Assembly: GCA_964525665.1 (NCBI GenBank)
Contig: CAZGKH010000002.1
Span: 1 to 30,309 of the forward strand
Origin: an uncultured Anaerolineae bacterium
Lineage (GTDB): Bacteria; Chloroflexota; Anaerolineae; VGOG01
Length of the DNA stretch: 30,309 bases
Reading direction: 5' to 3'
Below are positions 1,176 to 30,309 of this stretch, one piece after another (position 1 is the stretch's first letter; each line of letters opens with the position of its first letter). A program made the translations under genes and the position numbers. The notes under the pieces are model-generated. The model did no database searches and had not been told where the DNA came from. It saw only the letters and a program-made list of their open reading frames with translations.

Positions 1176-1176
1176 T

Positions 1177-1255
1177 GATTGGATATTGGAGATTAGATAT
1201 TGGAAGGTCTGGCAATTCAATCTCCAATACCCAATATCCAATATCCAACTTCCAG
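1177..1255. repeat. Intergenic inverted array of degenerate 7-mers (NATTGGA x4 ... TATCCAA-like x5), hairpin-forming
   Basis: gattgga tattgga gattaga tattgga (1177-1204) faces tctccaa tacccaa tatccaa tatccaa cttccag (1221-1255). Followed directly by the RBS caaaggaggataa (1256-1268). Confidence 0.85.
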
Positions 1256-1276
1256 CAAAGGAGGATAATAACGAGG

Positions 1277-2275: not shown

Positions 2276-2288
2276 AAGAAGACCCGCC

Positions 2289-2561
2289 TTGAACATGATC
2301 CATTCTGCATCGGTTGATGAATTAGTAGAGTTCTTCGATACCCACGATCTGGGCGAATACTGGGATGAAATGTCCGAAGCCCATTTCGAGGTGGACATAA
2401 AGACAAAGACACACATCGGTAACCAGGGGTGCAACACGCAATTTTGCCTTGAGTGTAATGGCGAGGTGAAGGGATGGAGGTATTGCCACGATGATGAGAT
2501 ACTTCCAGAAATCAAGAATAGCCTTTGCGAGCTGATTCGAGAACAGCTTGGGCTCAAATGA
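2289..2561 (+). pseudogene. Probable chimeric remnant: central part of a CopG/BrnA-like antitoxin fused to unrelated sequence
   Basis: SVDELVEFFDTHDLGEYWDEMSEAHFEVDIK resembles the 'EFWDTHDLxDYW' antitoxin family, but the C-terminal RHH part is absent. AT-richer than the flanking acs genes. No partner toxin. Confidence 0.5.
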
Positions 2562-2594
2562 TAGCAAAACATCTTGACTAAGGAGACGATTAGA

Positions 2595-3944: not shown

Positions 3945-3959
3945 GTCGGATGGTTGGGA

Positions 3960-4028
3960 GCAACGGATAGGCAGCGGATAAGCGGATGCGAGGAACCCTC
4001 ATCCGCTTATCCGTTGTTTATCCGCTGC
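3960..4028. repeat. ~70-bp palindromic 'CGGATA/TATCCG' element, copy 1
   Basis: Perfect 11-bp inverted repeat ataagcggatg (3978-3988) / catccgcttat (4000-4010), with outer arms gcagcggata / tatccgctgc. Similar to the reverse complement of 11174-11240. Confidence 0.8.
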
Positions 4029-4046
4029 ATTGAGGGGGTACGCTGC

Positions 4047-5105
4047 GTGCTGAATTTCATATCTCCCCACCTAGCCACAAACTACTTCCTTTTGGCTTTC
4101 ATCACCATCGTGGGCGTTCTGCAATTCGTTGCTGCCCGCCATAGGCTGATAGGCCTTACCTTGACAGGAAGTGTCAGGAAACCTATCTGGGGTTACCTGT
4201 TGGCCGTAGTCCTCATCGTGGTGGCCTTCGCTTGGTTCTTCGCCGACACACCGGAAGTCTTCACCCCTGGCCTGGCCGGATCCGAACTGGTGCTCCTCTT
4301 TGGGGCAGCCGGTGTTTGCGCCCTGGCCTTCACTCTGCTCGTTTCCTCTGTTCTCCACGGGATCCAACATCGAGAGAGATCTGATCCGAAGGCCGGTGGC
4401 CGCCTTCGTCACGAGGCCGTCGCCTGGCAGCAGTTGCGGGGAACGCTCTACCTGCCTGAAGATGCGGTTCGGTCGGGGGCTGCCATCTGCGTCTTGCTCA
4501 GTCCTTTCGATGAAACCCCTTCCCCGCACTCTCTAGTGTCTAGCTTGATCGAGGAAGGCTTCATCGTCCTGGCTATGGATTGGGGCTCTGAAGATGAGAT
4601 TCGTTATCCTGCTGTACTGAGCCTGCTGCCCACTGCGGTTGCCTATCTGACGCGACGGAACGAGGTCAACCCTGAACGCATCGGCGTCCTGGGAATTGGC
4701 CTGGGCGGCGATCTGGCCATCCGGTCGGCTGGGACCGACCAACAGATCACGGCCGTGCTGGCCCTGGCTCCTTTTCTGGCCCAGGCCAACACCAGACCGG
4801 GATTGAGCATCTTGAAAGAAACTTCCTACCTGGGCGCTCTCCGCTGGGCCAATTCCCAGAAGCGAGGAAAGCTGGTGGCGGAGCTCGCTGCATCAGACTA
4901 CGTGAGCAAACTGGGGTCCCGCCCCTTGCTGCTGGTCTATGGTGAACAAGACGGCATAACCCCCGCCGAGGGAGCCCGTGTAACCCTCGGTGAGGAAATG
5001 GTGCAAGGAAGGCTGAAGTCATTGCCGGGAGAGGGGCATCTAAGCCTGCCTCATAGCCCGGCAACATCCGCTCTGGCAGTCCGCTGGTTCAAAGAGAATC
5101 TGTAG
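4047..5105 (+). CDS. Membrane-anchored alpha/beta-hydrolase-fold protein (about 3 N-terminal TM helices); nucleophile position is Gly
   Basis: GTG 4047 after gaggggg. Hydrophobic N-terminus. Contains VNPERIGVLGIGLGGDLAI (elbow), LLVYGEQDGIT (acid) and LPGEGHLS (His). Confidence 0.75.
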   Translation: MLNFISPHLATNYFLLAFITIVGVLQFVAARHRLIGLTLTGSVRKPIWGYLLAVVLIVVAFAWFFADTPEVFTPGLAGSELVLLFGAAGVCALAFTLLVSSVLHGIQHRERSDPKAGGRLRHEAVAWQQLRGTLYLPEDAVRSGAAICVLLSPFDETPSPHSLVSSLIEEGFIVLAMDWGSEDEIRYPAVLSLLPTAVAYLTRRNEVNPERIGVLGIGLGGDLAIRSAGTDQQITAVLALAPFLAQANTRPGLSILKETSYLGALRWANSQKRGKLVAELAASDYVSKLGSRPLLLVYGEQDGITPAEGARVTLGEEMVQGRLKSLPGEGHLSLPHSPATSALAVRWFKENL

Positions 5106-5106
5106 C

Positions 5107-5685
5107 ATGTCTTTAGATCTTCAGTTGTTTCAGTTGATCAATAACCTGGCTGGTCACAATGCTTTCCTGGATGGCCTGGCGCGCCTCTTGGTCAACGAGT
5201 ATTTTCTGACCACGATAATGTCCTTGATCCTAGTCATCTTCTGGTTCGAGGGTCAGGAGCGGGATCAAAGGGAACGAAATCAGAGCGCGATACTCCGAGC
5301 CCTCGTGGCCCTGTTGCTGGCTAATGTCATCTTGAAGCTGTGTAATCTGGTCTATTTTCGCCCTCGGCCCTTCGATAGCCACGAAGTCAATTTGCTCTTC
5401 TATAAACCTTGGGATTCATCCTTCCCCAGCAACCCAGCCACCGTTGGGTTTTCCGTGGCCACCGCCGTATGGCTATACAACCGACGACTGGGAGCTCTGC
5501 TCCTGGTGCTGGCTGCGTTGTTCGGTCTGTCCCGCATCTACTGTGGCGTTCACTATCCGGCGGACGTCGTCGCCGGAGCGCTGTTGGGTAGTCTGTCTGC
5601 CTACCTCGTGGTGAGGAAAGGCGGATTCATTGATCCCGCGATAAACCTGATAATCAGGATGGGGCGTAGGCTCTACCTGGCCTAG
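5107..5685 (+). CDS. PAP2-family membrane phosphatase (BcrC-like undecaprenyl-diphosphatase)
   Basis: C1 KLCNLVYFRPRP, C2 variant SSFPSNP, C3 SRIYCGVHYPADV. Multiple TM segments. Confidence 0.85.
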   Translation: MSLDLQLFQLINNLAGHNAFLDGLARLLVNEYFLTTIMSLILVIFWFEGQERDQRERNQSAILRALVALLLANVILKLCNLVYFRPRPFDSHEVNLLFYKPWDSSFPSNPATVGFSVATAVWLYNRRLGALLLVLAALFGLSRIYCGVHYPADVVAGALLGSLSAYLVVRKGGFIDPAINLIIRMGRRLYLA

Positions 5686-5757
5686 CCGATTGGCCAACTT
5701 TGCAGACCTAATTCTCGTTCTCCACGATACGTCTCCGGGCCTTTAGATGACCAAGTG

Positions 5758-5906
5758 TCAACTTACGAGAGCGATCCAGACTTCGGAGGTTTTCAGACAC
5801 GATTTCGCCAGCAAACCAACCAGATAATCCCTGTCCTGAGCCTGTCGAAGGGAACGTAACTTTGCCAGCAGAGACACTGCCGGAAACCTCCGAAGTCTTA
5901 AGTTGA
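5758..5906. repeat. ~150-bp MITE-like element with nested inverted repeats
   Basis: Outer IR tcaactta (5758-5765) / taagttga (5899-5906). Perfect 15-bp IR agacttcggaggttt (5778-5792) / aaacctccgaagtct (5884-5898). Encloses the 21-bp element at 5832-5852. Confidence 0.7.
5832..5852. repeat. 21-bp 'GTCCTGAGCCTGTCGAAGGG' element
   Basis: tgtcctgagcctgtcgaaggg is identical to 14191-14211. A variant lies at 17543-17563 on the minus strand. Confidence 0.85.
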
Positions 5907-5934
5907 ATGTTTACACGACCAGCTAGGGCATTGA

Positions 5935-5963
5935 GCCGCCTCCCACTGAAGTCGGGAGGCGAC
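5935..5963. repeat. GC-rich REP-like hairpin
   Basis: gccgcctccc-actgaagtc-gggaggcgac; arms pair at 9 of 10 positions. Confidence 0.55.
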
Positions 5964-5995
5964 TGTGTGCTCTTGGCCGAGGTCGCGGCCGAGCC

Positions 5996-6024
5996 TTGAC
6001 TTTTTGCGTTCTCAATAGTATCAT
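5996..6024 (+). promoter_or_regulatory. Sigma70-type promoter for the zincin/PsbP/WXG-like cassette
   Basis: TTGACT (5996-6001) - 17 nt - TATCAT (6019-6024). Confidence 0.7.
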
Positions 6025-6038
6025 TCATGGAGACCATC

Positions 6039-6482
6039 ATGGGCCAGCCTGGGGGAATCCAGAAACTTCAGGATGGCTTGGCAGCACTGGAGAAAGCGAG
6101 GGTGGGCCACTCAATTGCAGCAGCCATCCGTGAGCAAGGTACAACCGTGCGATTTGGCCAGGCAGGCGAAGACGCCATCGCCTGTTTTGATCCCGATAGG
6201 AACGAAATTGTAATCGGTGAAGGGTTGAAGGACGCTTCACTTAACGTTCTGGTTCAACACCTGGCCCACGAAGGCACCCATGTGCAATGGGATCGCCTTC
6301 CTTCCATTGATCAGGAATATCACGCCTTCAAGGCTGAAGCTGAAGTTTGGAATGAACTGAAAGGAAACGAGACGGACAAGCAATGCGATCAGGTTAGCGA
6401 GATGATCTCTTTAGGGAAGGCGGAAGCCAAGAAGGTGATCCGCCGTGCTCCCTCTTATCGGAACCTACCGGAGTACGCTTGA
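6039..6482 (+). CDS. Small stand-alone zincin-type metallopeptidase domain (HExxH), toxin-domain-like
   Basis: LAHEGTHVQW followed by SIDQEYHAF (candidate third ligand Glu). Start is ATG 6039 (GGAG upstream) or ATG 6027. No signal peptide. Confidence 0.65.
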   Translation: MGQPGGIQKLQDGLAALEKARVGHSIAAAIREQGTTVRFGQAGEDAIACFDPDRNEIVIGEGLKDASLNVLVQHLAHEGTHVQWDRLPSIDQEYHAFKAEAEVWNELKGNETDKQCDQVSEMISLGKAEAKKVIRRAPSYRNLPEYA

Positions 6483-6509
6483 GCAACACAGGCGAGGAGG
6501 TGATTCGTT

Positions 6510-7127
6510 ATGCTGCAAAAAGGTTACGTCCCATTTCAATCCAGTCAACCCCGCATACCATGCACCTTTCTCTATCCTGTTGGTTGGGATGTACGAGAGA
6601 TCGTAGAGGACGGGTATGTAGAGATTTTCATCCTCGGGCCCATTAGTCGGGCAGGAACCTATTCAACAACCTTGTCGGTAGGGGTGACCCGCACTGCGGG
6701 CCAAACACCGCTAGAGGCGGCGAATGCGCTGGTTTCCAAATACCGTGCTGCTTTCAAGGCCCAGGAACGGGGCCCGTTCTCTGCCACAGTAGCCGGAAGG
6801 CCAGCAGTGGAAGTGGAGATTGCCTATTCCATGCTCCTGCCGCTGAACAGTCTGGACGCCAAACAGACCCCAATTCGCGAACGGCGCATCTTTTTTGAGG
6901 AAGACGATCAACTTTACGAAGTGGATTACACAGCCCCGGAAGAGGATTATGAAACCTGGTTAGGGGCCTTCCGCACCTTGGTGCAGACCTTCGTTTTTCC
7001 GGAGGAACCCATCAAGAGAGTCCCTTATCGTCCGATCATAACAGCGGCCCCTCAGTACGTTAGCGAAGATACGATGGAATACGGGTCTGACAGGGGAGAA
7101 AGCGATGAGCAATCTGAACACCACTAG
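6510..7127 (+). CDS. PsbP/DcrB(DUF1795)-like fold protein, cytoplasmic
   Basis: Pattern FLYPVGW ... VAGRPAVEV ... LYEVDYTAPEEDYETWLGAFRTLVQTFVF. GAGGAGG RBS. No signal peptide. Confidence 0.55.
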   Translation: MLQKGYVPFQSSQPRIPCTFLYPVGWDVREIVEDGYVEIFILGPISRAGTYSTTLSVGVTRTAGQTPLEAANALVSKYRAAFKAQERGPFSATVAGRPAVEVEIAYSMLLPLNSLDAKQTPIRERRIFFEEDDQLYEVDYTAPEEDYETWLGAFRTLVQTFVFPEEPIKRVPYRPIITAAPQYVSEDTMEYGSDRGESDEQSEHH

Positions 7128-7320
7128 AGCTGAGTTACACGAATCCTGGCAGCGCGTGCGCCAGCGCTGGCAGGGGACGACGGCTCTTTGGAACGACTCG
7201 GTGCATCGGCAGTTTGAGCGGGAGTTCTGGCAGCCGCTGGAGGACCAGGTGCCGGCCACCCTGAAAGAAATGGAGCGGCTGACCGAGGTTATCACCCAGG
7301 CGCGGCGGAGCGTGAAGTAA
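7105..7320 (+). CDS. WXG100-like small helical-hairpin protein (W-x-D variant)
   Basis: 71 aa, two amphipathic helices around central LWNDSVHRQFE. Overlaps the upstream gene; GGAG RBS. Confidence 0.55.
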   Translation: MSNLNTTRAELHESWQRVRQRWQGTTALWNDSVHRQFEREFWQPLEDQVPATLKEMERLTEVITQARRSVK

Positions 7321-7334
7321 GAAAGTGAGGTGTT

Positions 7335-7757
7335 ATGATGACTGTCCAAACTGTGACGCTGAATATGCCGAGTATTCTCTATGACCGGATCAAACATCGA
7401 GCGGAGCAGACGCATCGCTCTGTCGAAGCGGAATTGCTCGAAGCAGTGGCAAGGGCTGTGCCAGTGGCGGATGAACTGCCGCCGGATTTGGCTGAGACGA
7501 TTTCTCCCCTTGCTCACTTGGACGACGGGACTCTGCAACGTGCTGCCCGCAGTCATTTCCCCACCGAAAAAGCAACCGAGCTAGAAGCGTTGCACCTCAA
7601 GCGTCAAGACGAAGGGCTGACTGAAGATGGAGCGCAAAGAGCAGCCGAGTTGACGCACCAGTATGAGCGAGCGATGCTTATCCGCGCGCAGGCAACGGCA
7701 TTGCTTATGCAGCGCGGTTACGATGTTTCTGCCCTGATTACGGCTGAGCCGGAATGA
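7335..7757 (+). CDS. Ribbon-helix-helix/Arc-like putative antitoxin paired with the HNH gene
   Basis: N-terminus TVTLNMPSILYDRIKHRAEQTHRSVEAEL. GAGGTG RBS. ATGA overlap with the HNH gene. Confidence 0.55.
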   Translation: MMTVQTVTLNMPSILYDRIKHRAEQTHRSVEAELLEAVARAVPVADELPPDLAETISPLAHLDDGTLQRAARSHFPTEKATELEALHLKRQDEGLTEDGAQRAAELTHQYERAMLIRAQATALLMQRGYDVSALITAEPE

Positions 7758-8179
7758 GCGAGTATATTCCCAAACCCTTGCGTGAGCGCGTCACCGTGCA
7801 AGCGCGACACCGCTGCGGCTACTGTCTGACATCCGAAGCGATTGTCGGCACACCAATGGAGATAGACCATATCGTCCCACGCTCGTTGGGTGGCCTGACC
7901 GAGGAAGACAACCTGTGGCTGGCGTGTTCGCTCTGCAACGAACACAAAGGCGTCCGCACGGTTGCGCTGGACCTGCTTACAGGCGAAATGGTGCCACTGT
8001 TCAACCCACGCCGTCAGGTCTGGCAAGAGCATTTCGAGTAGACAGCCGAGGGCGATCGCATCATTGGCTTGACAGCGATCGGACGCACAACATTCGTCGC
8101 ACTGAATCTGAACCGGCCATCGCTCGTCAAGGCACGTCAAGTATGGGTGGCGGCAGGCTGGCACCCGCCGAAAGACTAG
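7754..8179 (+). pseudogene. HNH endonuclease interrupted by an in-frame TAG
   Basis: RCGYC ... EIDHIVPRSLGG ... NLWLACSLCNEHKG. TAG at 8039-8041, after which the same frame continues TAEGDRIIGLTAIGRTTFVALNLNR...WVAAGWHPPKD to TAG 8177-8179. Confidence 0.8.
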
Positions 8180-8207
8180 AGGTTAGCTATCGGCTGCTCA
8201 TAGTGTC

Positions 8208-10163
8208 ATGGACAAACCAAAAGAGACGTACCATATCATCCTCAAGCCCTCGGGCAATCGAATAGAAGTCGGGGACGGCACGCTGCTGTCCGATGCCATT
8301 GACCAGGCACGTGTCCTGGACGGACAGTACAGGGCCGGGCTGGAACTCAACCTGCCCTGTGGCGGCCAGGGACGCTGCGGACGCTGCAAGGTGGTGGTCG
8401 AGGAAGGACAGGTCAAGCGTCGCTCCGTCAGCCGTCTCTCAAAGACGGAGCTGGAGCAGGGCTATGCTCTGGCCTGCCAGACCGTCATCGAGAGTGATCT
8501 GGCGGTCTTCATACCGCCACAGGAGGCGATCCTTCGCAAGCTGCCCAGCGAGAAGGAGGCCAAGAAGGTCATCACTCTGCCGGTGGAGTGTGACTGGCGG
8601 AAGAATCCAGTTCGCTCCTTCTTCCTGGAGATCGAGCCGCCCAGCCTGGCTGATAACACCACCGACTTCGAGCGTCTCAAGAGGGAGTTGGCCCGTCAAC
8701 ACGGTGTCAGGGGGCTGGTGGCTGACCTGCCCGTGATCAAGAAGCTGTCCCGCACCCTGCGAGACGCCGACTGGCGGGTGACCGCTGTCCTGGATATGAG
8801 CACCTGGGTCTCCCCCGATGGCCCTCCCCGGCTCATTGACCTGCGCCCCGGCGACCGCACGACGAGCTCCTGGGCAGTGGCCGTGGACATCGGCACCACC
8901 TCCAATGTGGTCTATCTGGTCAACCTTTTGACCAGCGAGGTGGTGGACACGGCCGCGGAGTACAACGGCCAGATCTCCTGCGGCGAGGACGTCATCTCCC
9001 GCATCATCTACGCCACCAAGCAGGAAGGGGGCTTAGACCACTTGCAGCGGCTGGTAGTGCAGACCATAAACGGACTCATTGATGAGTTGGTTGAGCGCAA
9101 CGGGATAGACGCGGCAGAGATTGACAAGATGACGGTGGCTGGCAACACCACCATGATCCACCTCTTTCTGGGCCTCTGGCCGGAGTCCATCCGCCTTGAA
9201 CCCTACGCGCCCACCATCAACCACCCGCTGCCCGTCAAGGCGTATGAGTTGGGCTTGCACATCAATCCCGAAGCCACGGTGGACTGCCTGCCCGGCGTGG
9301 GCGCCTACGTGGGGGCTGATACCACGGCGGGTGTTCTCAGCTCCCTCATGTATCAGACAGAGGCGTTGACGCTCTTCATTGACGTGGGCACCAATGGAGA
9401 GATAGTGTTGGGCAACTTCGATTGGCTTCTGTCCTGTGCCTGTTCGGCTGGCCCAGCCTTTGAGGGCGCAGGGGTGCAGTCAGGGATGAGAGCAACAATA
9501 GGAGCCGTCGAAGAGGTATGGATCAACACCAGGACTTACGAACCGACCTACCGGGTCATTGGCGATGTGCCTCCGCGAGGCATCTGCGGCTCAGGGATGA
9601 TCTCGCTGCTGGCGGAGATGTTCATCACCGGCATCGTTGATAAGGGTGGCAAGGTCAACCAGAGCCTGGACACGCCGAGGGTGCGTGTCGGTGAACATGG
9701 CCCGGAGTACGTGGTTGCCTGGGCCGAGGAGACGCGACGTAAGGCCAAGGACGTGGTGATTACCGAGGTGGACATCACCAATCTGATACGGGCCAAGGCA
9801 GCCTTCTACGCCGGTTTCTCGGTACTGACCCGCAGCGTGGGTTTGCAGTTGGCCGAGGTAGAGCAGGTGCTCATCGGCGGGGCCTTTGGCCAATACATCA
9901 ACGTGGAGAAGGCCATCCAGATCGGGCTGCTGCCGGACATGCCCTGGGAACGCTTCAAGTATCTGGGCAATACCTCGGCTATGGGGGCTTACACGGCCCT
10001 CCTATGCCCCGACATGCGCCAGGAGGTGATGGACATTGCCAGCAAGATGACCTACCTGGAACTGTCGGCCGATAACACCTTCATGGACGAGTTCATCAAG
10101 GCCCTATTCCTGCCCCATACTGACCTGGCCAGTTTCCCGTCGGTGGTCAGGCTGCTGGGCTAG
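8208..10163 (+). CDS. acsV: ASKHA-domain corrinoid reductive activator (RACo/DUF4445) with N-terminal 2Fe-2S ferredoxin
   Basis: LPCGGQGRCGRCKV...LACQ, VDIGTTS, FIDVGTNGEIVLG, CSAGPAFEG, GICGSG and IGGAFGQYI. Located in the acs cluster. Confidence 0.92.
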   Translation: MDKPKETYHIILKPSGNRIEVGDGTLLSDAIDQARVLDGQYRAGLELNLPCGGQGRCGRCKVVVEEGQVKRRSVSRLSKTELEQGYALACQTVIESDLAVFIPPQEAILRKLPSEKEAKKVITLPVECDWRKNPVRSFFLEIEPPSLADNTTDFERLKRELARQHGVRGLVADLPVIKKLSRTLRDADWRVTAVLDMSTWVSPDGPPRLIDLRPGDRTTSSWAVAVDIGTTSNVVYLVNLLTSEVVDTAAEYNGQISCGEDVISRIIYATKQEGGLDHLQRLVVQTINGLIDELVERNGIDAAEIDKMTVAGNTTMIHLFLGLWPESIRLEPYAPTINHPLPVKAYELGLHINPEATVDCLPGVGAYVGADTTAGVLSSLMYQTEALTLFIDVGTNGEIVLGNFDWLLSCACSAGPAFEGAGVQSGMRATIGAVEEVWINTRTYEPTYRVIGDVPPRGICGSGMISLLAEMFITGIVDKGGKVNQSLDTPRVRVGEHGPEYVVAWAEETRRKAKDVVITEVDITNLIRAKAAFYAGFSVLTRSVGLQLAEVEQVLIGGAFGQYINVEKAIQIGLLPDMPWERFKYLGNTSAMGAYTALLCPDMRQEVMDIASKMTYLELSADNTFMDEFIKALFLPHTDLASFPSVVRLLG

Positions 10164-10164
10164 A

Positions 10165-10228
10165 GATTAGAGGTTGGAGATTGGAGGTTGGAACGTCCAG
10201 CTTCCAATCTCCAACTTCCAACATCCAA
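10165..10228. repeat. Intergenic inverted 7-mer array (GGTTGGA ... CTCCAAC family)
   Basis: gattaga ggttgga gattgga ggttgga (10165-10192) faces cttccaa tctccaa cttccaa catccaa (10201-10228). Followed by caaaggaggataa (10229-10241). Confidence 0.85.
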
Positions 10229-10242
10229 CAAAGGAGGATAAC

Positions 10243-11172
10243 GTGTACATCATTGGCGAGAACATCCAGATCATATCCAATGTGGTGAAAAAGGCCGTAG
10301 GTGAGAGGGATGCCAAGCCTCTCCAGGAACTGGCCAAGAGGCAGGTCGAGGGAGGGGCTCAGATGATTGATCTCAACATCGGCCGGCGCAAGAAGGACGG
10401 GCACGAGGTCATGCCCTGGCTGGTCGAGGCCATCCACGAAGTGGCCCCCGACGCGGCCCTATCCCTGGACACCACCAACGCGGCGGCCATCGAAGCCGGC
10501 CTGAAACGCTGCCAAGAGCTGGGTATCGAGGCCATGATCAACTCTACCTCGGCCGATCCTGAGCGGTTGGAGGCGACCATGCCTCTGGCAGCAGAGTATG
10601 GTTCCAAGATCATCGCCCTCACTATGGAGAAAAGCATACCCGCCACAGCCGACGGCCGAGTGCAGTTGGCCATGGAGCTCATTTTGCCCAAGGCCATGGA
10701 GCTGGGAGTCCCCATGGAGAACGTCTACCTCGATCCGCTAGTAATGACAGTCAAAGGTATGCAAGATCATGCTCCGGAAAACCTCAATGCGATCCGCATG
10801 TTCAAGATCCTCAGCGATCCGCCACCCATGACCGTGGTGGGCCTGTCCAACGTGTCCAACAGTGTGCCGCACGAGAACCGCAGCCTGATCAATCGAACTT
10901 TCCTGGTGATGCTCCTGGCTGCCGGGCTTGACTCGGCCATCGCCGATCCCATGGACGAGGCCCAGAACGAGGTGATCCGCATTGTTGAGGAGCGGGACAC
11001 CAGCACCGCGGTAGGCCAGCTTGTGGTCAACCTCTACGACGCCACCGCCGCCATGGAGGAACTGGACCCATCCCTGGTGGACATGGGAGACCCCGACCAG
11101 GCGGCGATTTACAAGACCATTCAGATCCTGAATAACAAGGTAATCTATGCCGACTCCTATTTGAGGATGTGA
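10243..11172 (+). CDS. acsE: Methyltetrahydrofolate:corrinoid/iron-sulfur protein methyltransferase
   Basis: GTG 10243 after GGAGG. Pterin-binding barrel motifs YIIGENI, MIDLNIG, LSLDTTN, MINSTS, YLDPLV and GLSNVSNS. Confidence 0.9.
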   Translation: MYIIGENIQIISNVVKKAVGERDAKPLQELAKRQVEGGAQMIDLNIGRRKKDGHEVMPWLVEAIHEVAPDAALSLDTTNAAAIEAGLKRCQELGIEAMINSTSADPERLEATMPLAAEYGSKIIALTMEKSIPATADGRVQLAMELILPKAMELGVPMENVYLDPLVMTVKGMQDHAPENLNAIRMFKILSDPPPMTVVGLSNVSNSVPHENRSLINRTFLVMLLAAGLDSAIADPMDEAQNEVIRIVEERDTSTAVGQLVVNLYDATAAMEELDPSLVDMGDPDQAAIYKTIQILNNKVIYADSYLRM

Positions 11173-11173
11173 G

Positions 11174-11240
11174 GCAGCGGATATACAACTGACAAGCGGA
11201 TGAGGGGGCTTGCATCCGCTTATCCGTTTGCATCCGTTGC
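11174..11240. repeat. ~70-bp palindromic 'CGGATA/TATCCG' element, copy 2 (inverted relative to copy 1)
   Basis: gcagcggatatacaactgacaagcggatgagggggcttgcatccgcttatccgtttgcatccgttgc. Its reverse complement aligns with 3960-4028. Confidence 0.8.
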
Positions 11241-11257
11241 GGCGGATGGAGGTTTCC

Positions 11258-11821
11258 ATGATCACCGCACGTGTCTTGGACGGACAGCCCTCAGTCCTTT
11301 GGCCTGAGGACAAAGGGTACAGGGTAGGCATATTAACCGTTAGTGATAGCAGCTATCGTGGGGAGCGGGATGATTTGAGCGGGCCCCTCCTCCGCGAGAT
11401 GGCCGTTGAGCACCTGGGAGCCAAAGTGGAACTGCAGGCAGTGGTGCCCGATGAACTCGACATCATTAAAGACACGCTGATAGAGTGGGCCGACGAAGTG
11501 GGCCTTGACCTGATCCTCACCACTGGTGGAACCGGCTTTGCGCCTCGGGACGTTACGCCTGAGGCCACCAGGGAGGTTATTGAGCGGGAAGCGCCGGGAT
11601 TGGCTGAGACCATGCGGGCCAAGGGCCTGGAGATCACGCCCCATGCCATTCTCTCGCGCGCCGTAGCTGGCATCCGGGGCCGCACCGTTATCATCAACCT
11701 GCCGGGCAGCCCCAAAGCGGTGCGGGAGGACCTGGAGGCTATCTTGCCGGCCATCCCCCATGGGATCGAGTTGCTCAAAGGGGGGCTAGGGGGGCATGAG
11801 TATCGAGGCCACGGTGGTTGA
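11258..11821 (+). CDS. mog: Molybdopterin adenylyltransferase, MogA/MoaB family
   Basis: ATG 11258 after GGAGG. Motifs ILTVSD, DLSGP, LILTTGGTGFAPRDVTPEAT and IINLPGSPKAV. Confidence 0.9.
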   Translation: MITARVLDGQPSVLWPEDKGYRVGILTVSDSSYRGERDDLSGPLLREMAVEHLGAKVELQAVVPDELDIIKDTLIEWADEVGLDLILTTGGTGFAPRDVTPEATREVIEREAPGLAETMRAKGLEITPHAILSRAVAGIRGRTVIINLPGSPKAVREDLEAILPAIPHGIELLKGGLGGHEYRGHGG

Positions 11822-23761: not shown

Positions 23762-24010
23762 GTGGAGAGGAAAGTGGGAAAGGTGACGCACTATTGGGGC
23801 AAGATCGGTGTGGCTGGCATCAAACTCACCGCTGCCTTGAGCCAGGGTGACGCCATCCGCATCAAGGGGGCCACTACTGACTTCGAGCAGACCGTGGGCT
23901 CCATACAGATTGAGCATCAGAATATTGAGACCGCCAAAAAAGGCCAGGAGATCGGCCTCAAGGTCGCGGGGAAGGTGCGCCGGGGGGATACGGTGTACAA
24001 GGTAGAATAG
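23762..24010 (+). CDS. Small beta-barrel protein ('translation elongation factor-like', U32 C-terminal-like domain)
   Basis: VGKVTHYWGKIGVAGI...GDAIRIKG...FEQTVGSIQIEH...GQEIGLKV. GGAGGTG RBS. 1-nt overlap with tilS. Confidence 0.75.
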   Translation: MERKVGKVTHYWGKIGVAGIKLTAALSQGDAIRIKGATTDFEQTVGSIQIEHQNIETAKKGQEIGLKVAGKVRRGDTVYKVE

Positions 24011-25491
24011 TGGATGTCCTGCTGAAGGTCCGCCAGTCAATTGACCGACATGATCTCCTGGCTGGGGGCGGGACGGTGGTGGTCGGCGTCTCCGGCGGAC
24101 CCGATTCCCTCTGCCTGTTGCACGTCCTGAACCGCCTGCGCGAGGTTTACGGGATCGAGCTGCACGTGGCCCACCTCGATCATCGCCTCCGTGGTGAGGA
24201 GTCAAAGAAGGATGCGACTTTCGTGGCTCGGCTGGCCGAGGAATGGGGATTGCCGGCCACCGTCGAGGCCCGCGACGTACCGAGGCTGGCCAGGGAGAGC
24301 AAACTGGCCATCGAAGAGGCAGCCCGCCAGGCCCGCTACTCGTTTTTGGCCCAGACCGCCCTGGCGGTGGGGGCGGAGAGAATCGCGGTAGGCCACCACG
24401 CCGATGACCAGACGGAGACCATCGTCATGCATTGGCTGCGGGGGGCGGGGTTGGCTGGCCTGCGGGGAATGTTGCCTCAGACCAATCTGGGACAGATGCG
24501 CCTGGAGGCCGCCTGGCCCGATCGTCCTCCCCTGCACCTTCAACTGATTCGCCCGTTGCTGGAGACATCCCGAGCCGAGATCGAAGCCTATTGCCGAGCG
24601 CATGGGTTGAAGCCCCGCTTTGATCTTTCTAACCTGGACACCACGTATTACCGCAATCGCCTTCGCCACGAGCTGATCCCCTACCTGGAAAGCTACAACC
24701 CCAACATCCGGCAGGTGTTGCGCCGTTCGGCTCAGGTCATCGGCGACGACTACAGCTTTTTGCAGGCCGAGTTGGAGCGCGTCTGGGGCGCGGTGGTCTC
24801 TTCGGAGTCGGAGGAGGCCATCACCTTCGATCTGGCCTGCTGGCGAGGCTTGCCTACCAGCCAGCAGCGTTCCACCCTGCGGGAGGCCATCCATCGCCTG
24901 CGCCGCTCCCTGCGTAACATCAACTGGATCCACATTGAGAACGCCCTGCCGGCCTTGAGGGCCAAGCCAGCGGGAACCCAGGTCACCTTACCCCAGGGCC
25001 TGATGCTCTCCATCGGCTATGACGATTTCACCGTAGCCGGCGAAGGTTACGTGCCCGAAGTGGACTGGCCGCTTCTCCTCGTGGAACGCCTGCCCGTGAC
25101 AGTGCCGGGGGTTACAGAGCTTCCCGATTCTGGCTGGTGCCTTGAATCTGCCATCATTGAGCGGAAGGATTGTGGCGAGGAGTATCTGGGCAACCCCAAT
25201 CCCTGGCAGGCGTTTCTCGACTATGAGGTGGCAGGTTCAGGGTTAATGCTGCGGCAGCGACAACCTGGCGATCGTTTCCAACCGCTGGGCCTGGGGGGCC
25301 ACGAGAAGAGCCTCCACACCTTCATGATTGATCACCATATACCGCGCTCCCTGCGGGGTTTCGTTCCCATCGTGGTCTCGCCACGACACATCGTCTGGGT
25401 GGCCGGCTGGCGCATTGATGAGCGGGCCAGAATCACCGCTGCAACAGATCGTGTTCTGCATCTAGCCTTCCGCTCATGTCTTGACGTTTGA
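24010..25491 (+). CDS. tilS: tRNA(Ile)-lysidine synthetase
   Basis: PP-loop VSGGPDS, GHHADDQTET, IRPLL, RNRLRHELIP and C-terminal domain RQRQPGDRFQPLG...IVWVAG. Confidence 0.95.
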   Translation: MDVLLKVRQSIDRHDLLAGGGTVVVGVSGGPDSLCLLHVLNRLREVYGIELHVAHLDHRLRGEESKKDATFVARLAEEWGLPATVEARDVPRLARESKLAIEEAARQARYSFLAQTALAVGAERIAVGHHADDQTETIVMHWLRGAGLAGLRGMLPQTNLGQMRLEAAWPDRPPLHLQLIRPLLETSRAEIEAYCRAHGLKPRFDLSNLDTTYYRNRLRHELIPYLESYNPNIRQVLRRSAQVIGDDYSFLQAELERVWGAVVSSESEEAITFDLACWRGLPTSQQRSTLREAIHRLRRSLRNINWIHIENALPALRAKPAGTQVTLPQGLMLSIGYDDFTVAGEGYVPEVDWPLLLVERLPVTVPGVTELPDSGWCLESAIIERKDCGEEYLGNPNPWQAFLDYEVAGSGLMLRQRQPGDRFQPLGLGGHEKSLHTFMIDHHIPRSLRGFVPIVVSPRHIVWVAGWRIDERARITAATDRVLHLAFRSCLDV

Positions 25492-25529: not shown

Positions 25530-25558
25530 TTGCCTTTTTCGCCAAAAGCGTGTAGAAT
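25530..25558 (+). promoter_or_regulatory. Sigma70-type promoter upstream of the riboswitch
   Basis: TTGCCT (25530-25535) - 17 nt - TAGAAT (25553-25558). Confidence 0.6.
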
Positions 25559-25576
25559 AACCACGTCAACCACATA

Positions 25577-25714
25577 GTTCGTTCTCCGAGCCAGGCGACC
25601 TAAGGGTTGCAAGGGCCTATGGCGCATGGCCGCAGTGGGTGCCTGCATTTGGCAGAGCACCCCAACGGTACGGATGGAAACGTCCGTGCCCCCCGTCATT
25701 TGGAAAGGAGGACT
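25577..25714 (+). ncRNA. Moco/Wco (molybdenum cofactor) riboswitch-class RNA motif
   Basis: CTCCGAG; 11-nt tetraloop receptor CCTAAG (25599-25604) ... TATGG (25618-25622); GAAA tetraloop stem 25670-25687; 3' GCCCCCCGT...TGGAAAGGAG. Lies upstream of Mo/W uptake genes. Confidence 0.88.
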
Positions 25715-25729
25715 GAAACCACTGTCTGT

Positions 25730-25762
25730 CAGCGCTCTCTTTCCATGGGGACGCTGTTTTTT
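25730..25762 (+). terminator. Intrinsic terminator forming the riboswitch expression platform
   Basis: cagcgctctc-tttccat-ggggacgctg followed by tttttt. Confidence 0.7.
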
Positions 25763-25845
25763 GTTACATAGGATTCACGGTGAGAACTCATTCGGGTAAC
25801 CGCAGGGTCGTTCTCATTGCAATACTGCTTGAGAGGTGGGGATAG

Positions 25846-26232
25846 ATGAAGCAGGAAATCGCAGAGCGTATCAAGGCGTCATTGACCGAAGGCAAGTTGC
25901 CCTGTCCATCGGCCTTCAAAGTCGCACGGCGGTTAGAAGCCAGCCCCCAACAGGTGGGCGAGGTGGCTGATGAGCTCAACGTCAGAATCTCCCGCTGTCA
26001 ATTGGGCCTCTTCGGCTACGGGTCCAACAAAGGCAAGGCGTTGGGGCCAGCACAGGGGGTTGGGGAGGGTTTGGAAGCCAGGATCAGGGAGAGGGTGGTT
26101 GATGGACGGCTACCCTGTGTAGTGGCCTGGGGCATTGCCAGCGAGCTAACGATGAAGCGGATTGACGTGGCCAGGGCGGCTGAGAGCTTGGGCATCAGAA
26201 TCACTCAATGCCAGTTGGGGTGTTTTGCGTGA
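25846..26232 (+). CDS. Hypothetical protein with two tandem Cys-containing repeats (LPC...CQLG)
   Basis: GKLPCPSAFKVA...RCQLGLFG and GRLPCVVAWGIA...QCQLGCF. GAGGTGGGG RBS. First gene after the riboswitch; GTGA overlap with tupA. Confidence 0.75.
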   Translation: MKQEIAERIKASLTEGKLPCPSAFKVARRLEASPQQVGEVADELNVRISRCQLGLFGYGSNKGKALGPAQGVGEGLEARIRERVVDGRLPCVVAWGIASELTMKRIDVARAAESLGIRITQCQLGCFA

Positions 26233-27143
26233 AACAACAACGGATTAGGAATAAAACAGATAAGAACACGAAATCCGTTCCTTTCTCAATCCGATGTAGT
26301 GTTGTTTGGACTATCGTGGCGTTGGTGCTGGTGCTTGCCACAGCAGTGGGCTGTGGATCCACGAGGAAGCCCATCTCACCGACATCAACCCCCAGGCCAC
26401 AGAAGCTGATCCTGGCCACCACCACCTCCACCTATGACTCGGGCTTGCTGGACTATCTCCTACCCGACTTCGAGGCCCAGTACAATGCCCAGGTGGAGGT
26501 CATCGCCGTGGGGACGGGCCAGGCTATCAAGACTGGCGAGAAGGGCGATGCCGACGTCATTCTGGTGCACGCTCGCGCCAGGGAGGACAAGTTCGTGGCG
26601 GAGGGCTATGGTGTCAACCGCCAGGATGTGATGTACAACGACTTCGTCATCGTCGGGCCGGAGGATGACCCGGCCGGCATCCAGGGGATGACGGACGCAG
26701 CGACGGCCTTGGCCAGAATCGCTGAAGCCCAGGCTCCCTTCGCCTCGCGGGGCGATGAATCGGGCACCCACAGCAAGGAGAAAGCGATTTGGGAGAAAGC
26801 AGGCGTCGAGCCTGGCGACGACTGGTACCTCTCGCTGGGCCAGGGGATGGGAGCAACTCTGACTTTTGCCAATGAGAAAGGGGCCTATACCCTCACTGAT
26901 CGGGGCACGTATCTATCTCGCCAGGAGGGATTGGAGCTGCCCGTCCTGGTGGAGGGGGATCCCATCCTCTTCAACCCCTATGGCGTCATCGCCGTTAATC
27001 CGGAGAAGCATCCCCACGTCAAGTATGAGTTCGCCATGAAGTTCATCGAGTGGCTCACCTCGGTGGGCGCCCAGGAAAAGATTGGGGAATTTGGGGTCGA
27101 AAGGTTCGGTCAACCCTTATTCTATCCCAACGCTACGAGATGA
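26229..27143 (+). CDS. tupA: Tungstate ABC transporter substrate-binding lipoprotein
   Basis: Lipobox AVGC. LATTTSTYDSGLL (TupA TTTS motif), VGTGQAI, MYNDFVIVGP, SRGDESGTH and LFNPYGVI. Confidence 0.88.
   Translation: MKQQRIRNKTDKNTKSVPFSIRCSVVWTIVALVLVLATAVGCGSTRKPISPTSTPRPQKLILATTTSTYDSGLLDYLLPDFEAQYNAQVEVIAVGTGQAIKTGEKGDADVILVHARAREDKFVAEGYGVNRQDVMYNDFVIVGPEDDPAGIQGMTDAATALARIAEAQAPFASRGDESGTHSKEKAIWEKAGVEPGDDWYLSLGQGMGATLTFANEKGAYTLTDRGTYLSRQEGLELPVLVEGDPILFNPYGVIAVNPEKHPHVKYEFAMKFIEWLTSVGAQEKIGEFGVERFGQPLFYPNATR
26232..26307. repeat. Palindromic element in the tupA 5' end (CGGAT/ATCCG family)
   Basis: Terminal IR aaacaaca / tgttgttt. Inner IR aacggatt (26239-26246) / aatccgtt (26272-26279). 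AT-rich relative to the rest of the gene. Confidence 0.5.
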
Positions 27144-28288
27144 GGAAACACGGGGATTTCGAATTTAACTTGCGAGAGCTAGCGGGCTCCATGGGAGATT
27201 TTGGGACTCTCTTCCCCTTGGCCATTGGCTATATCGTGGTGAACGGGATCGATCCAGCAGGCCTTTTTGTGATGATGGGCTTGGTAAACATCGCTACTGG
27301 CCTCGTTTATCGCCTTCCTATGCCTGTGGAGCCCAAGAAAGTGGTAGCAGTGACGGCTATTACTCAAGGGTGGCCTGCCCCCATGGTCTACGCTTCCGGG
27401 TTAGGCCTGGGGATCACTTGGTTCCTGTTGGTGTTCACGGGCCTACTGCGCAAGATCGTGGAGTGGACTCCTCTCTTTGTGGTACGAGGTATCCAGTTGG
27501 CCCTGGGGGTGATGCTAGCCTGGCAGGGCCTTGAAATGATGCGTCCCGATCCATTGCTGGGGCTCTTGGCCGTCGTTATCGTATTGGCCTTGCGCGAGAA
27601 TCGCTACGCACCAGCGGCCATTGTCCTCATGGCTCTGGGCTTGGTCGTTATCGGCTTGAGAGGAGAGCTGCCGCCCGCCTTGGAGCTAGCTATCACTTTG
27701 CCACCCTTGACAGTGCCGCGCCTGGAGGATGTGTGGAAGGCCATGCTCTTGGCCGGCTTTGCTCAAATCCCACTCTCCATCACCAATGCGGTGATCGCTA
27801 CCGCGGCTCTGATCCGAGATTATTTTCCTGACAAGCCAGTTACCGAGCGGCAGTTGATGCTCAACATGGGCTTCATGAATGTTATCCCAACCTTCTTTGG
27901 TGGGATGCCCATGTGCCATGGCGCTGGCGGGTTAGCAGGGCAGTACTACTTTGGTGCCCGTACGGGTGGAACCAACATCCTGGAGGGCTTGATCGAGATC
28001 TGCCTGGGGCTCTTCTTGGGGAAGTCTCTGCATAACCTGCTGACTGCCTTTCCCTTGGCCGTTGTGGGCGGGATGATGTTCCTCGTCGGCATAGAACTGC
28101 TCAAGGTCGTCAAAGGGCTGCAGGGCTGGGGGGCACGGATAGCGGTTTTGACGGCAGCGGTCTCCTTGATCAGCAACATGGCCGTGGGTTTTGTCGTGGG
28201 AATGGTCGCTGCTTATCTTGTCCGGCACCTCCTCCACCGGGATGTGCTCTCGTGCGCCTGCCGTAAGCCTCAATTAGTCCAAATATAG
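27140..28288 (+). CDS. MOT1-family (sulfate/molybdate) secondary transporter
   Basis: ELAGSMGDFGTLFPL, PMPVEPKK and GGMPMCHGAGGLAGQYYFGARTG. ATG 27140 overlaps the tupA stop (ATGA). Confidence 0.88.
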   Translation: MRKHGDFEFNLRELAGSMGDFGTLFPLAIGYIVVNGIDPAGLFVMMGLVNIATGLVYRLPMPVEPKKVVAVTAITQGWPAPMVYASGLGLGITWFLLVFTGLLRKIVEWTPLFVVRGIQLALGVMLAWQGLEMMRPDPLLGLLAVVIVLALRENRYAPAAIVLMALGLVVIGLRGELPPALELAITLPPLTVPRLEDVWKAMLLAGFAQIPLSITNAVIATAALIRDYFPDKPVTERQLMLNMGFMNVIPTFFGGMPMCHGAGGLAGQYYFGARTGGTNILEGLIEICLGLFLGKSLHNLLTAFPLAVVGGMMFLVGIELLKVVKGLQGWGARIAVLTAAVSLISNMAVGFVVGMVAAYLVRHLLHRDVLSCACRKPQLVQI

Positions 28289-28291
28289 GAG

Positions 28292-29005
28292 GTGATCTCC
28301 ATCATCAACGAGATCGGACATGGTTTTATCCAAGCTTTTCAGCTCCTTGTCAGTTTAGACCCGGAGTTGATCCGCATTGTGAGTCTCTCTCTGCGGGTCA
28401 CGGGGGCAGCCTTGCTCTTCAGTACCCTGGTTGGTATCCCTCTGGGCAGTTGGTTGGGATTGAGGCGCTTCGTTGGGCGACAGTTGGTGGTTGCCCTTCT
28501 CTACACTGGCATGGGGTTTCCGCCGGTCGTCGTCGGCCTCTTTGTCTACCTGATGTTGTCGCGCAGCGGCCCTTTGGGTTCTCTGGGCTGGCTTTTCACT
28601 CCGGCGGCCATGGTTGTCGCCCAGATGATCATTTCCCTCCCTTTGGTCTCAGGCTTCACCATGGCGGCGGTGATGGGAGTGGATCCCGACCTCCGTCAGC
28701 AGGTCCTCTCTCTTGGAGCGACCGACTGGCAGGCAACTCTGGCTGTTCTGAAGGAGGCGAGGGTAGGAGTCATGGTCTCGGTCATCGCTGGCTTTGGCAG
28801 CATCATCTCCGAGGTGGGGGCGGTGATGCTGGTGGGAGGCAACATCCAGGGCTCGACCCGGGTGCTGACCACGTCAATTGTGCTTGAAACGCGAAAAGGC
28901 AATTTCGACTTAGCTATTGCCTTGGGGGTTGTTCTCCTGTCGCTCACGTTTCTCGCCAACCTGGCCATGCTGCGTTTGCAGGGGAGGGCTTTCGAGCATG
29001 CATGA
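28292..29005 (+). CDS. tupB: Tungstate ABC transporter permease
   Basis: GFPPVVVGLFVYLMLSRSGPLG, SEVGAVMLVGGNI and TRVLTTSIVLETRKG. Start codon uncertain. Confidence 0.88.
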   Translation: MISIINEIGHGFIQAFQLLVSLDPELIRIVSLSLRVTGAALLFSTLVGIPLGSWLGLRRFVGRQLVVALLYTGMGFPPVVVGLFVYLMLSRSGPLGSLGWLFTPAAMVVAQMIISLPLVSGFTMAAVMGVDPDLRQQVLSLGATDWQATLAVLKEARVGVMVSVIAGFGSIISEVGAVMLVGGNIQGSTRVLTTSIVLETRKGNFDLAIALGVVLLSLTFLANLAMLRLQGRAFEHA

Positions 29006-29732
29006 CGACATAGCATACCGGCTGCACAAGGTAGTCAAGGCCTACGGCGGGGGAGAGGTTCTACACGTTGATAGCCTGGATATCCACTGGGGCGAGGTTT
29101 TTGGCATAGTGGGCCCCTCCGGCAGCGGCAAGAGCACGCTGTTGCGCCTCCTCGATTTCCTGGAGCCACCGACGGCGGGGCGGATACATTTCCACGACCA
29201 CTCCGTCAATGGCGCTGGCTCGGTCCCCCTGACCATCCGGCGCCAGGTGACCACCGTCTTCCAGAAGCCTGTCCTCCTGAACACGACGGTTTACGGCAAT
29301 GTGGCCTACGGCGTCAAGATTCGGGGGGAGAAAGAAGTGGAGGTCAAGGTCAACGAAGCTCTGGCGCGGGTGGGTTTGATGGAGTTTGCCAACGCTCCAG
29401 TTAGGACGCTGTCTGGAGGCGAGGCTCAGAGGGTGGCTTTAGCCAGGGCCATGGTCGTCGAGCCGCAGGTGCTCCTGCTGGACGAGCCGACAGCTAACCT
29501 GGATCCTTACAACGTGGGGCTAATCGAAGGCATCGTAGCCGACCTGAACCGCAGAAAGGGCACGACCATCGTCCTGGTTACTCACAACGTCTTCCAGGCC
29601 AAACGGTTGGCCCATCGGGTGGCGTTGCTCCTGGAGGGTAGGATCGTCGAGGTGTCCCCCGCCGAGCGGTTCTTCTCTTCGCCGTCCGATCCGCGCACCC
29701 TGGCCTTCGTGCAGGGGGAAATGGTTTACTAG
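28998..29732 (+). CDS. tupC: Tungstate ABC transporter ATPase
   Basis: ATG 28998. Walker A GPSGSGKST, signature LSGGE, Walker B LLLDEP, H-loop VTHN. Confidence 0.88.
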   Translation: MHDDIAYRLHKVVKAYGGGEVLHVDSLDIHWGEVFGIVGPSGSGKSTLLRLLDFLEPPTAGRIHFHDHSVNGAGSVPLTIRRQVTTVFQKPVLLNTTVYGNVAYGVKIRGEKEVEVKVNEALARVGLMEFANAPVRTLSGGEAQRVALARAMVVEPQVLLLDEPTANLDPYNVGLIEGIVADLNRRKGTTIVLVTHNVFQAKRLAHRVALLLEGRIVEVSPAERFFSSPSDPRTLAFVQGEMVY

Positions 29733-30169: not shown

Positions 30170-30309
30170 ATGCCATATTCAGATAGCTTCAATCGCCCCA
30201 TCAGCTACCTGCGGGTTTCGGTGACCGACCGCTGCGACCTGCGCTGCGTCTACTGTATGCCGGCTGAGGGAATCCACTGGCGCCCTCACGGGGACATCCT
30301 GCGTTATGA
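30170..30309 (+). CDS. moaA: GTP 3',8-cyclase MoaA, 3'-truncated by the window edge (absent from the ORF track)
   Basis: ATG 30170 gives [31 protein letters not shown], with the radical SAM CxxxCxxC and the MoaA YLRxSVTDRC motif. Confidence 0.9.

Follow-up and report, generated by a model that had tools for sequence, protein, structure and literature searches.

A gene for a MOT1-type secondary carrier lies between tupA and tupB, two genes of a tungstate-type ATP-binding cassette (ABC) importer, in a 30,309-nucleotide (nt) stretch of DNA (the window; contig CAZGKH010000002.1, positions 1 to 30,309). These genes stand behind a molybdenum cofactor (Moco)-class riboswitch of the variant with a P3 stem, and the question raised by this locus is whether a single cofactor-sensing RNA controls two different entry routes for molybdate and tungstate. 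The original prediction, made from the letters of the window, had proposed that one switch governs both tungstate and molybdate uptake, by Tup and MOT1, or else that the ABC system and the secondary carrier cooperate. Our analysis suggests that the locus is best and most simply read as one cofactor switch that governs two uptake routes, an ABC system and a secondary carrier, a reading that is probably correct and well supported by the sequence; the assignment of a metal to each route and the tie between P3 and MOT1 were not supported.

Operon structure and riboswitch leader

All the predicted parts (promoter, Moco-class RNA, a gene for a Cys-repeat protein, here called CysRep, tupA, MOT1, tupB and tupC) are present and joined by overlaps or very short gaps (Table 1). 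The start of tupA overlaps the stop of CysRep (GTGA), that of MOT1 overlaps the stop of tupA (ATGA), tupB begins 3 nt past the MOT1 stop, and tupC overlaps tupB by 8 nt. No promoter-like site was found by consensus scan between 25560 and 29732, tupA included, and this layout appears to leave no room for a separate promoter of MOT1, which the original prediction had named as a finding that would speak against it. The region is most likely a single transcription unit. The window sequence is present in hydrothermal-vent metagenomes, with runs X1-X3 and X8 among the vent samples that contain the locus, and in marine ones; the nearest relatives of its genes are Anaerolineae metagenome-assembled genomes (MAGs), and the host is most likely an uncultured Anaerolineae (Chloroflexota) bacterium of hydrothermal-vent and marine sediment metagenomes.

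The Moco family RF01055 was the sole Rfam family detected in the window, and its match (61.9 bits, E 8.5e-13; the gathering score is 36) spans the whole model, positions 1-135 of 135, without truncation. We also built our own covariance model, R1, from 16 aptamers and ran it over all Tup and CysRep loci (designated by L numbers below, as are the MOT1 loci); P3 was left out of the structure used for its building because the P3 register of Rfam mis-paired on the window. The window aptamer scored 127 bits against this model. Among 11 P3-bearing relatives, compensatory changes were observed in 21 of the 39 predicted pairs, P3 pairs included, and P1, P2, P4 and P5 all covary. P3 itself is a 35-nt element between P2 and P4 (25631-25665), in agreement with the long P3 that had been predicted at 25630-25668, and its pairs covary among the same relatives by GC/AU, GU/GC/CG and UA/CG exchanges.

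As the expression platform we predict an intrinsic terminator, a U-run and an alternative helix in which the 3' core of the aptamer would take part. In the minimum-free-energy folds of both 25690-25775 and 25700-25768, GGAAAGGAGG, which is part of this 3' core, pairs with CUCUCUUUCC, the 5' half of the terminator, and the pyrimidine tract of this candidate anti-terminator is kept in L084, L087, L083 and L092. The leaders of the same four loci contain the same terminator hairpin, with a perfect stem of 10-13 bp, compensatory changes and a U-run; in all, five related leaders conserve the terminator. Four of six leaders compared (L092, L171 and L173 among them) also have the same -35 and -10 boxes ahead of the aptamer. 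From this layout we infer the usual transcriptional OFF switch, in which the bound cofactor would favour the terminator and free RNA the anti-terminator, as predicted by the folding.

The MOT1 gene and its insertion

The product of the gene between tupA and tupB matched PF16983 with 172.6 bits (cut-off 30) in two stretches, whereas its match to Sulfate_transp was weaker (36.7 bits) and no STAS match was obtained. It carries PMPVEPKK at residue 60 and FGGMPMCHGAGGLAGQYYFGARTG at residue 253, which we take to be the two family motifs as worded by Tejada-Jimenez 2007. No solved structure related to this protein by sequence was found. Two motifs have been described for the MOT1 family (10.1101/102517), and bacterial homologues of the window protein are numerous (>5000 matches at E<1e-20), the nearest being those of Anaerolineae (79-81% identity). 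A foreign origin of the gene was considered and rejected, given these nearest homologues and the lack of any compositional sign (GC content at third codon positions of 0.69, like that of its neighbours).

In the related operons L091, L092 and L093 (TupB 89-92% identical) and in L173, tupA is directly followed by tupB, and these loci serve as empty-site comparators. L093 shares with the window the 3' end of tupA and the TAGGAGGTGAT leader of tupB, with a 72-nt spacer between the two; in the window, the MOT1 reading frame exactly replaces this spacer without the addition of any non-coding DNA, and the TAG that ends the frame belongs to TAGGAGG, the Shine-Dalgarno sequence of tupB. Only two other loci among those examined have the order tupA-MOT1-tupB. 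One, L081, is of the window's own lineage (five proteins 100% identical); the other, L082, comes from another sample, with identities of 85% for TupA, 88% for MOT1 and 90% for TupB. The ratio of nonsynonymous to synonymous substitution rates (dN/dS) between the window and L082 was 0.17 for MOT1, 0.14 for tupA and 0.10 for tupB, and MOT1 is thus under purifying selection.

An assembly artefact was ruled out by the identical ENA contig L081, by the diverged copy L082, and by contigs of the vent run X1 (Logan contigs, an assembly separate from that of the window), which run across the two junctions of MOT1 (0-2 differences, depth about 5). In the marine run X4, the depth was 80-400 on the tup flanks versus 0-6 over MOT1, and one contig (depth 79) runs from 27082 straight on to 28304 and lacks MOT1. 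Because the gene is present in some and absent from other related populations, and because of its dN/dS value, it is an accessory insertion of one sub-lineage that selection has maintained. The marine X4 population is mostly without MOT1, and the insertion is thus polymorphic between populations.

The gene order is uncommon; the original prediction had named a common order as a finding that would speak against it. It was absent from the best 80 of 393 MOT1 loci in species-representative genomes (56-79% identical), none of which has tupA or CysRep beside MOT1, and from the best 80 of >525 metagenomic TupB loci (70-95% identical), none of which has a MOT1 homologue. The operon as such is common, and the arrangement with MOT1 is a genuine variant of it, though a rare one. 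Links of MOT1 homologues to molybdenum (Mo) or tungsten (W) were nevertheless observed elsewhere. Five of the 80 MOT1 loci (L079, L071, L073, L041 and L040, from Chloroflexota and Thermodesulfobacteriota/Syntrophobacterales MAGs) have, as the gene immediately preceding MOT1, one for a ModE-N-like regulator of about 110 amino acids (aa) (TIGR00637, 77 bits; L079 4321-4941). In L079, furthermore, MOT1 (60% identical) stands directly before tupB (72% identical) with a promoter-like region of its own; neither a riboswitch in this locus nor a tupA upstream of its MOT1 was found.

Tup proteins and the distribution of P3-bearing aptamers

TupA of the window aligned with TupA of G. sulfurreducens (3LR1) at 289 bits and with that of D. 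alaskensis (5MY5) at 240 bits. The residues proposed for oxyanion binding are TTTS, Arg118, Thr124, Asp170 and His59 (PMC5517513); in the window protein TTTS, His, the Arg of SRGD, Thr and Asp are kept, in the aligned stretches ATTTST, VHAR, SRGDESGTH and TLTDRGTY, and the TTTS motif noted earlier is thus conserved in the alignment to 3LR1. The N-terminal extension from the GTG at 26229 is kept in L092 and L087. Against the best-scoring specific models, TupA obtained 225 bits (NF041772, equivalog cut-off 400) and TupB 170 bits (NF041773, equivalog cut-off 320), cut-offs that are naming thresholds and not functional criteria; the subfamily model NF038017 was passed by TupB (263 bits versus 100), which shares 70-95% identity with the products of 80 TupB genes from metagenomic tup operons. 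Characterised TupA proteins bind tungstate with picomolar and molybdate with nanomolar Kd (PMC5517513), and since they bind molybdate too, Tup need not be exclusive for tungsten. The division into tungstate by Tup and molybdate by MOT1 is accordingly an assumption of the original prediction, as TupA proteins bind both and no characterised bacterial MOT1 was found.

The same prediction had treated P3 ahead of tup genes as a peculiarity of this operon. According to the published rule, P3-bearing RNAs accompany Mo or Moco genes and P3-less ones W genes such as tupABC (PMC2408646; PMC11725836). In our census with R1, each of the 29 distinct P3-less aptamers had tupA or tupB as the next gene and none had CysRep, and every one of the 13 distinct aptamers immediately ahead of CysRep had P3. 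Behind this pair of P3-bearing aptamer and CysRep we found tupABC without MOT1 (L092, L173), tupBCA, wtpABC-moaA (WtpA 418 bits, equivalog cut-off 355; WtpC 462 bits, above cut-off) and a system of the energy-coupling factor (ECF) type. Because the 13/13 pairing persists whatever transporter follows, the P3-bearing aptamer belongs with CysRep and not with MOT1, and MOT1 explains nothing of P3. Five more P3-bearing aptamers stand directly ahead of tup genes (L099, L106, L107, L149 and L152). Control of W-type importers by P3-bearing aptamers is the normal state of affairs in this clade. Either Mo and W are not cleanly discriminated by P3, or the cells deliberately tie W-type importers to their Moco status.

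Both types of aptamer occur within one operon at four loci, in the order P3-bearing aptamer, CysRep, tupB, tupC, P3-less aptamer, tupA (Table 1), and L093 has a P3-less aptamer in the space separating CysRep from tupA, so that tupABC follows a P3-bearing aptamer, CysRep and a P3-less aptamer. Such dual arrangements suggest two separate inputs, possibly Moco and a tungsten cofactor, on one transporter. In the ECF-type variant, the first cargo gene (L083 731-2092; L171 5399-6784) encodes an ABC_cobalt (PF09819) membrane domain together with a stretch similar to the molybdopterin-binding domain Oxidored_molyb (E 5.5e-7), and the next genes encode a double ATPase and CbiQ; the system could be an ECF transporter for a pterin cofactor or for Mo/W.

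The CysRep family

CysRep, the first gene of the operon, matched no family of Pfam or NCBIfam. Its 427 homologues are, without exception, annotated as 'hypothetical', and at E<=1e-3 the family comprises 1093 cluster representatives. Four Cys are invariant (C20, C51, C91 and C122), and each repeat has a CQLG[LC]F motif. In the AlphaFold2 model, with a predicted local distance difference test score (pLDDT) of 76.5, each repeat is folded as helix-strand-helix-helix-strand, and the repeats resemble winged helix-turn-helix (wHTH) domains. A Foldseek search against PDB gave nothing below E 0.3, the PDB profile search had no significant match (top hit RacA, E 0.18), and a per-member family scan yielded weak DUF7645 and wHTH matches and nothing stronger. 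Distant members (L175-L177) are solitary and without aptamer.

The P3-bearing aptamer and CysRep form a constant leader module, usually right after tilS, behind which the transporter varies. Rare joins of CysRep homologues (P0350, P0383 and P0288) to a HycI hydrogenase maturation protease, a CobW/HypB-type GTPase domain or a HemD fragment were also observed, and could be gene-calling errors. Taken as fusions, they hint at a role in metal-centre maturation.

Possible function of the operon and alternative explanations

The anatomy of the operon, the insertion and its rarity, the selection on MOT1 and the conservation of the terminator can all be read from the sequence, whereas what is said below of the working of the switch, of a common transcript, of the way in which the carriers transport and of the metal taken by each route is inference. 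A sigma-70-like promoter would drive a Moco-class riboswitch with an intrinsic terminator as its platform. With cofactor bound, the aptamer would hold GGAAAGGAGG, the CAGCG...CGCUG-U6 hairpin would form and transcription would stop (OFF); with cofactor scarce, GGAAAGGAGG would pair with CUCUCUUUCC, no terminator would form and the five translationally coupled genes would be made. The ancestral unit, common in the clade, would have been a P3-bearing aptamer, CysRep and tupABC between tilS and moaA, in which, in one sub-lineage, an Anaerolineae-type MOT1 gene presumably took the place of the short tupA-tupB spacer and was then kept by purifying selection. The net effect would be that a shortage of pterin cofactor turns on two routes for Mo/W oxyanions together, an ATP-driven high-affinity system with a binding protein and a secondary carrier. 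A precedent of a kind exists in Caldithrix abyssi, where a Moco riboswitch is found near a PF16983 gene (PMC5317091).

Several observations weigh against one switch for two Mo/W routes. The P3 rule leaves the ligand of a P3-bearing aptamer beside W-type importers uncertain. No Moco aptamer was found within 5 kb of MOT1 in any of the 80 closest MOT1 loci (692 kb searched), and many of L001-L078 have matches to ABC ATPases on either side of MOT1; in L052 (1278-7825), the only locus annotated in detail, ABC exporter genes overlap MOT1 at both ends, with two ABC_membrane+ABC_tran genes upstream and ABC_tran and ABC2_membrane genes downstream. Given these aptamer-free, exporter-type contexts, a Mo/W role for this MOT1 clade is not secure. 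We found no functionally characterised bacterial MOT1-family protein in the literature, the published bacterial cases being annotations, and the RNA runs that were searched for the locus sequence do not contain it. As to the switch, the terminator of the window is weaker (-12.7 kcal/mol versus -21 to -30 kcal/mol in related leader segments, the latter folded with flanking sequence), and at 25751 it has GGGGACGCUG against GGGGGCGCUG in four relatives, which creates a C.A mismatch; given both the mismatch and the weaker hairpin, the switch may leak more in the window.

Another possible explanation, which we consider rather unlikely, is that the operon serves tungstate uptake throughout: the P3 aptamer would sense a tungsten cofactor or both cofactors, MOT1 would be a low-affinity tungstate route, and P3 would not discriminate between Mo and W. 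It would account for the W-preferring TupABC, TupBCA and WtpABC behind the P3-bearing aptamer and CysRep, where no ModABC was seen, and for the five P3-bearing aptamers directly ahead of tupA or tupB; the window also contains a Wood-Ljungdahl cluster, and the formate dehydrogenase feeding this pathway in E. limosum is a tungstoenzyme (PMC11725836). It fits poorly with the strict placement of the P3-less aptamers (29/29 before tup genes, 0 before CysRep) and with the four operons that contain both aptamer types, which argue that the two types read different signals, and characterised MOT1 proteins are carriers of molybdate (Arabidopsis MOT1.1, Km 20 nM, PMC10780190).

It is improbable, in our opinion, that the MOT1 gene is a mere passenger, either unrelated to Mo/W (a carrier for sulfate or another anion, or an exporter) or expressed from a signal of its own inside tupA. 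The closest homologues do lie between unrelated ABC exporter genes without a Moco aptamer, and the weaker Sulfate_transp match (36.7 bits) points in the same direction. Against this stand the exact integration with zero non-coding DNA added, the gene order kept in two lineages at a dN/dS of 0.17, the MOT1-specific motif FGGMPMCHGAGGLAGQYYFGARTG in the protein and the ModE-like regulators adjoining 5 of the 80 homologues, and no promoter-like site was found in tupA.

A very improbable scheme is one in which the carrier takes its oxyanion from TupA, which would thus feed an ATP-driven and an ion-driven channel: MOT1 does follow tupA immediately, with an ATGA overlap that suggests coupled translation, and L079 has a 60%-identical MOT1 inside a tup unit, directly before tupB, but none of the 80 closest MOT1 homologues has an adjacent tupA, so that the family works without TupA, the MOT1 of L079 has no tupA upstream, and we know of no SulP- or MOT1-family carrier that uses a binding protein. 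If true, it would be the first SulP/MOT1-type secondary transporter dependent on a binding protein, and a single periplasmic receptor, controlled by a single cofactor switch, would supply both an ATP-driven and an ion-driven way into the cell.

Other features of the window

The original prediction had also pointed to mog and moaA in the window. A Mog/MoaB-like gene is indeed encoded there, after a Wood-Ljungdahl cluster at 51-11172 (acsB for the ACS/CODH beta subunit, two CdhD-family subunit genes, the activator RACo and a pterin-binding methyltransferase), whereas moaA is represented only by a fragment of about 46 codons at the end of the window. The window further encodes mreBCD and a PBP2-type penicillin-binding-protein gene. 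Between tupC and moaA lies a small gene on the reverse strand, with a strong promoter-like site at 30147-30120 (11/12 matches); at the equivalent position in L173 (7839-8505), a PIN-domain gene and its small companion have the look of a toxin-antitoxin system.

Table 1. Features of the window and related aptamer-containing loci (window positions unless an L number is given).
Feature	Position	Strand	Basis or remark
Mog/MoaB-like gene (MoCF_biosynth)	11210-11821		
tilS, upstream neighbour	24010-25491		
Sigma-70-like promoter, TTGCCT-17-TAGAAT	25530-25558	+	consensus scan, 9/12 matches; predicted
Moco-class riboswitch aptamer RF01055, P3 variant	25572-25726	+	Rfam 61.9 bits
P3 hairpin, GGGUGC/GCACCC plus CUGC/GCAG	about 25635-25663	+	within the 35-nt element 25631-25665; covariation
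Candidate anti-terminator, GGAAAGGAGG (25702-25711) x CUCUCUUUCC (25735-25744)	25702-25744	+	minimum-free-energy fold; role inferred
Intrinsic terminator, CAGCG.CUCUC / GGGGA.CGCUG then U6	25730-25762	+	-12.7 kcal/mol, z -2.6; predicted
CysRep, 128 aa, two repeats, 4 Cys	25846-26232	+	Pfam/NCBIfam: no family
tupA, lipoprotein-type tungstate/molybdate binding protein	26229-27143	+	PBP_like_2, 181 bits
MOT1/SulP-family secondary carrier, 382 aa, lineage-specific insertion	27140-28288	+	PF16983, 172.6 bits
tupB, ABC permease	28292-29005	+	NF038017, 263 bits (cut-off 100)
tupC, ABC ATPase without TOBE domain, 244 aa	28998-29732	+	ABC_tran, 118 bits
Small reverse gene between tupC and moaA	29776-30117	-	no Pfam match
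moaA start, about 46 codons in the window	30170-30309		identified via the longer identical contig L081
Module of P3-bearing aptamer and CysRep	window 25572-26232; L083, L084-L086, L087, L089, L092, L095, L097, L098, L104, L158, L171-L174		
Operons with both aptamer types	L089 1365-4663; L095 432-4183; L098 2504-4901; L104 378-4032		

Comparison with known systems

The window RNA shares with the Moco riboswitch (RF01055; E. coli moaA leader, Regulski et al. 2008, PMC2408646) the cores CUCCGAG, GGAAAC, CCCGU and GGAAAGGAG, the P3 stem and the predicted behaviour of a repressing (OFF) element, located ahead of cofactor-related genes. It differs in that it heads tungstate-type transport genes, in its P3 of about 29 nt, in its terminator platform and in the uncharacterised Cys protein encoded by the first gene. 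In the survey of 2008, P3-bearing RNAs were found only with Mo/Moco genes (PMC2408646). Compared with the P3-less 'Tuco' switch of Eubacterium limosum tupABC (PMC11725836), the window likewise has an RF01055-class RNA over tupABC, as have the 29 distinct P3-less aptamers of Chloroflexota metagenome loci in their placement before tup genes. The window aptamer differs in having P3 and a terminator, the E. limosum switch being proposed to act on translation (PMC11725836), and the E. limosum operon has neither MOT1 nor CysRep. The equation of P3 with molybdenum and of its absence with tungsten does not hold simply, as P3 aptamers head Tup and Wtp in Anaerolineae, and the operons with both aptamer types offer natural pairs for testing how riboswitches discriminate Mo from W.

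With the TupABC systems of E. acidaminophilum and of structures 5MY5 and 3LR1, the window system has in common the TupA site residues, a short TOBE-less ATPase and overlapping genes; it differs by the secondary-carrier gene between tupA and tupB and by scores under the narrow NCBIfam equivalog cut-offs. The carrier resembles plant, algal and fungal MOT1 (PF16983) in its two PF16983 stretches, both motifs and the lack of a STAS domain, and is set apart by being bacterial, inside an ABC importer operon and, by its overlap, translationally coupled to tupA. MOT1 homologues have been predicted in bacteria, among them sulfate reducers (PMC5840216), while two recent comparative surveys take MOT1 as eukaryotic only (PMC6147048, PMC13144720). 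Like the window gene, Cabys_2008 of Caldithrix abyssi (PMC5317091) has a Moco riboswitch and Moco genes in its vicinity; there, however, 1130 nt separate the gene from the riboswitch upstream of it, and the setting is a locus for Moco biosynthesis (PMC5317091). A selected copy of MOT1 in a riboswitch-controlled tup operon is the clearest argument from genomic context here for a bacterial MOT1 that carries Mo/W oxyanions, and the locus, as a compact construct, would be a useful test case for bacterial MOT1 function. The parts of this system (RF01055, TupABC and a PF16983 carrier) are already known; what is new is their rare and clean combination, not a new kind of system.

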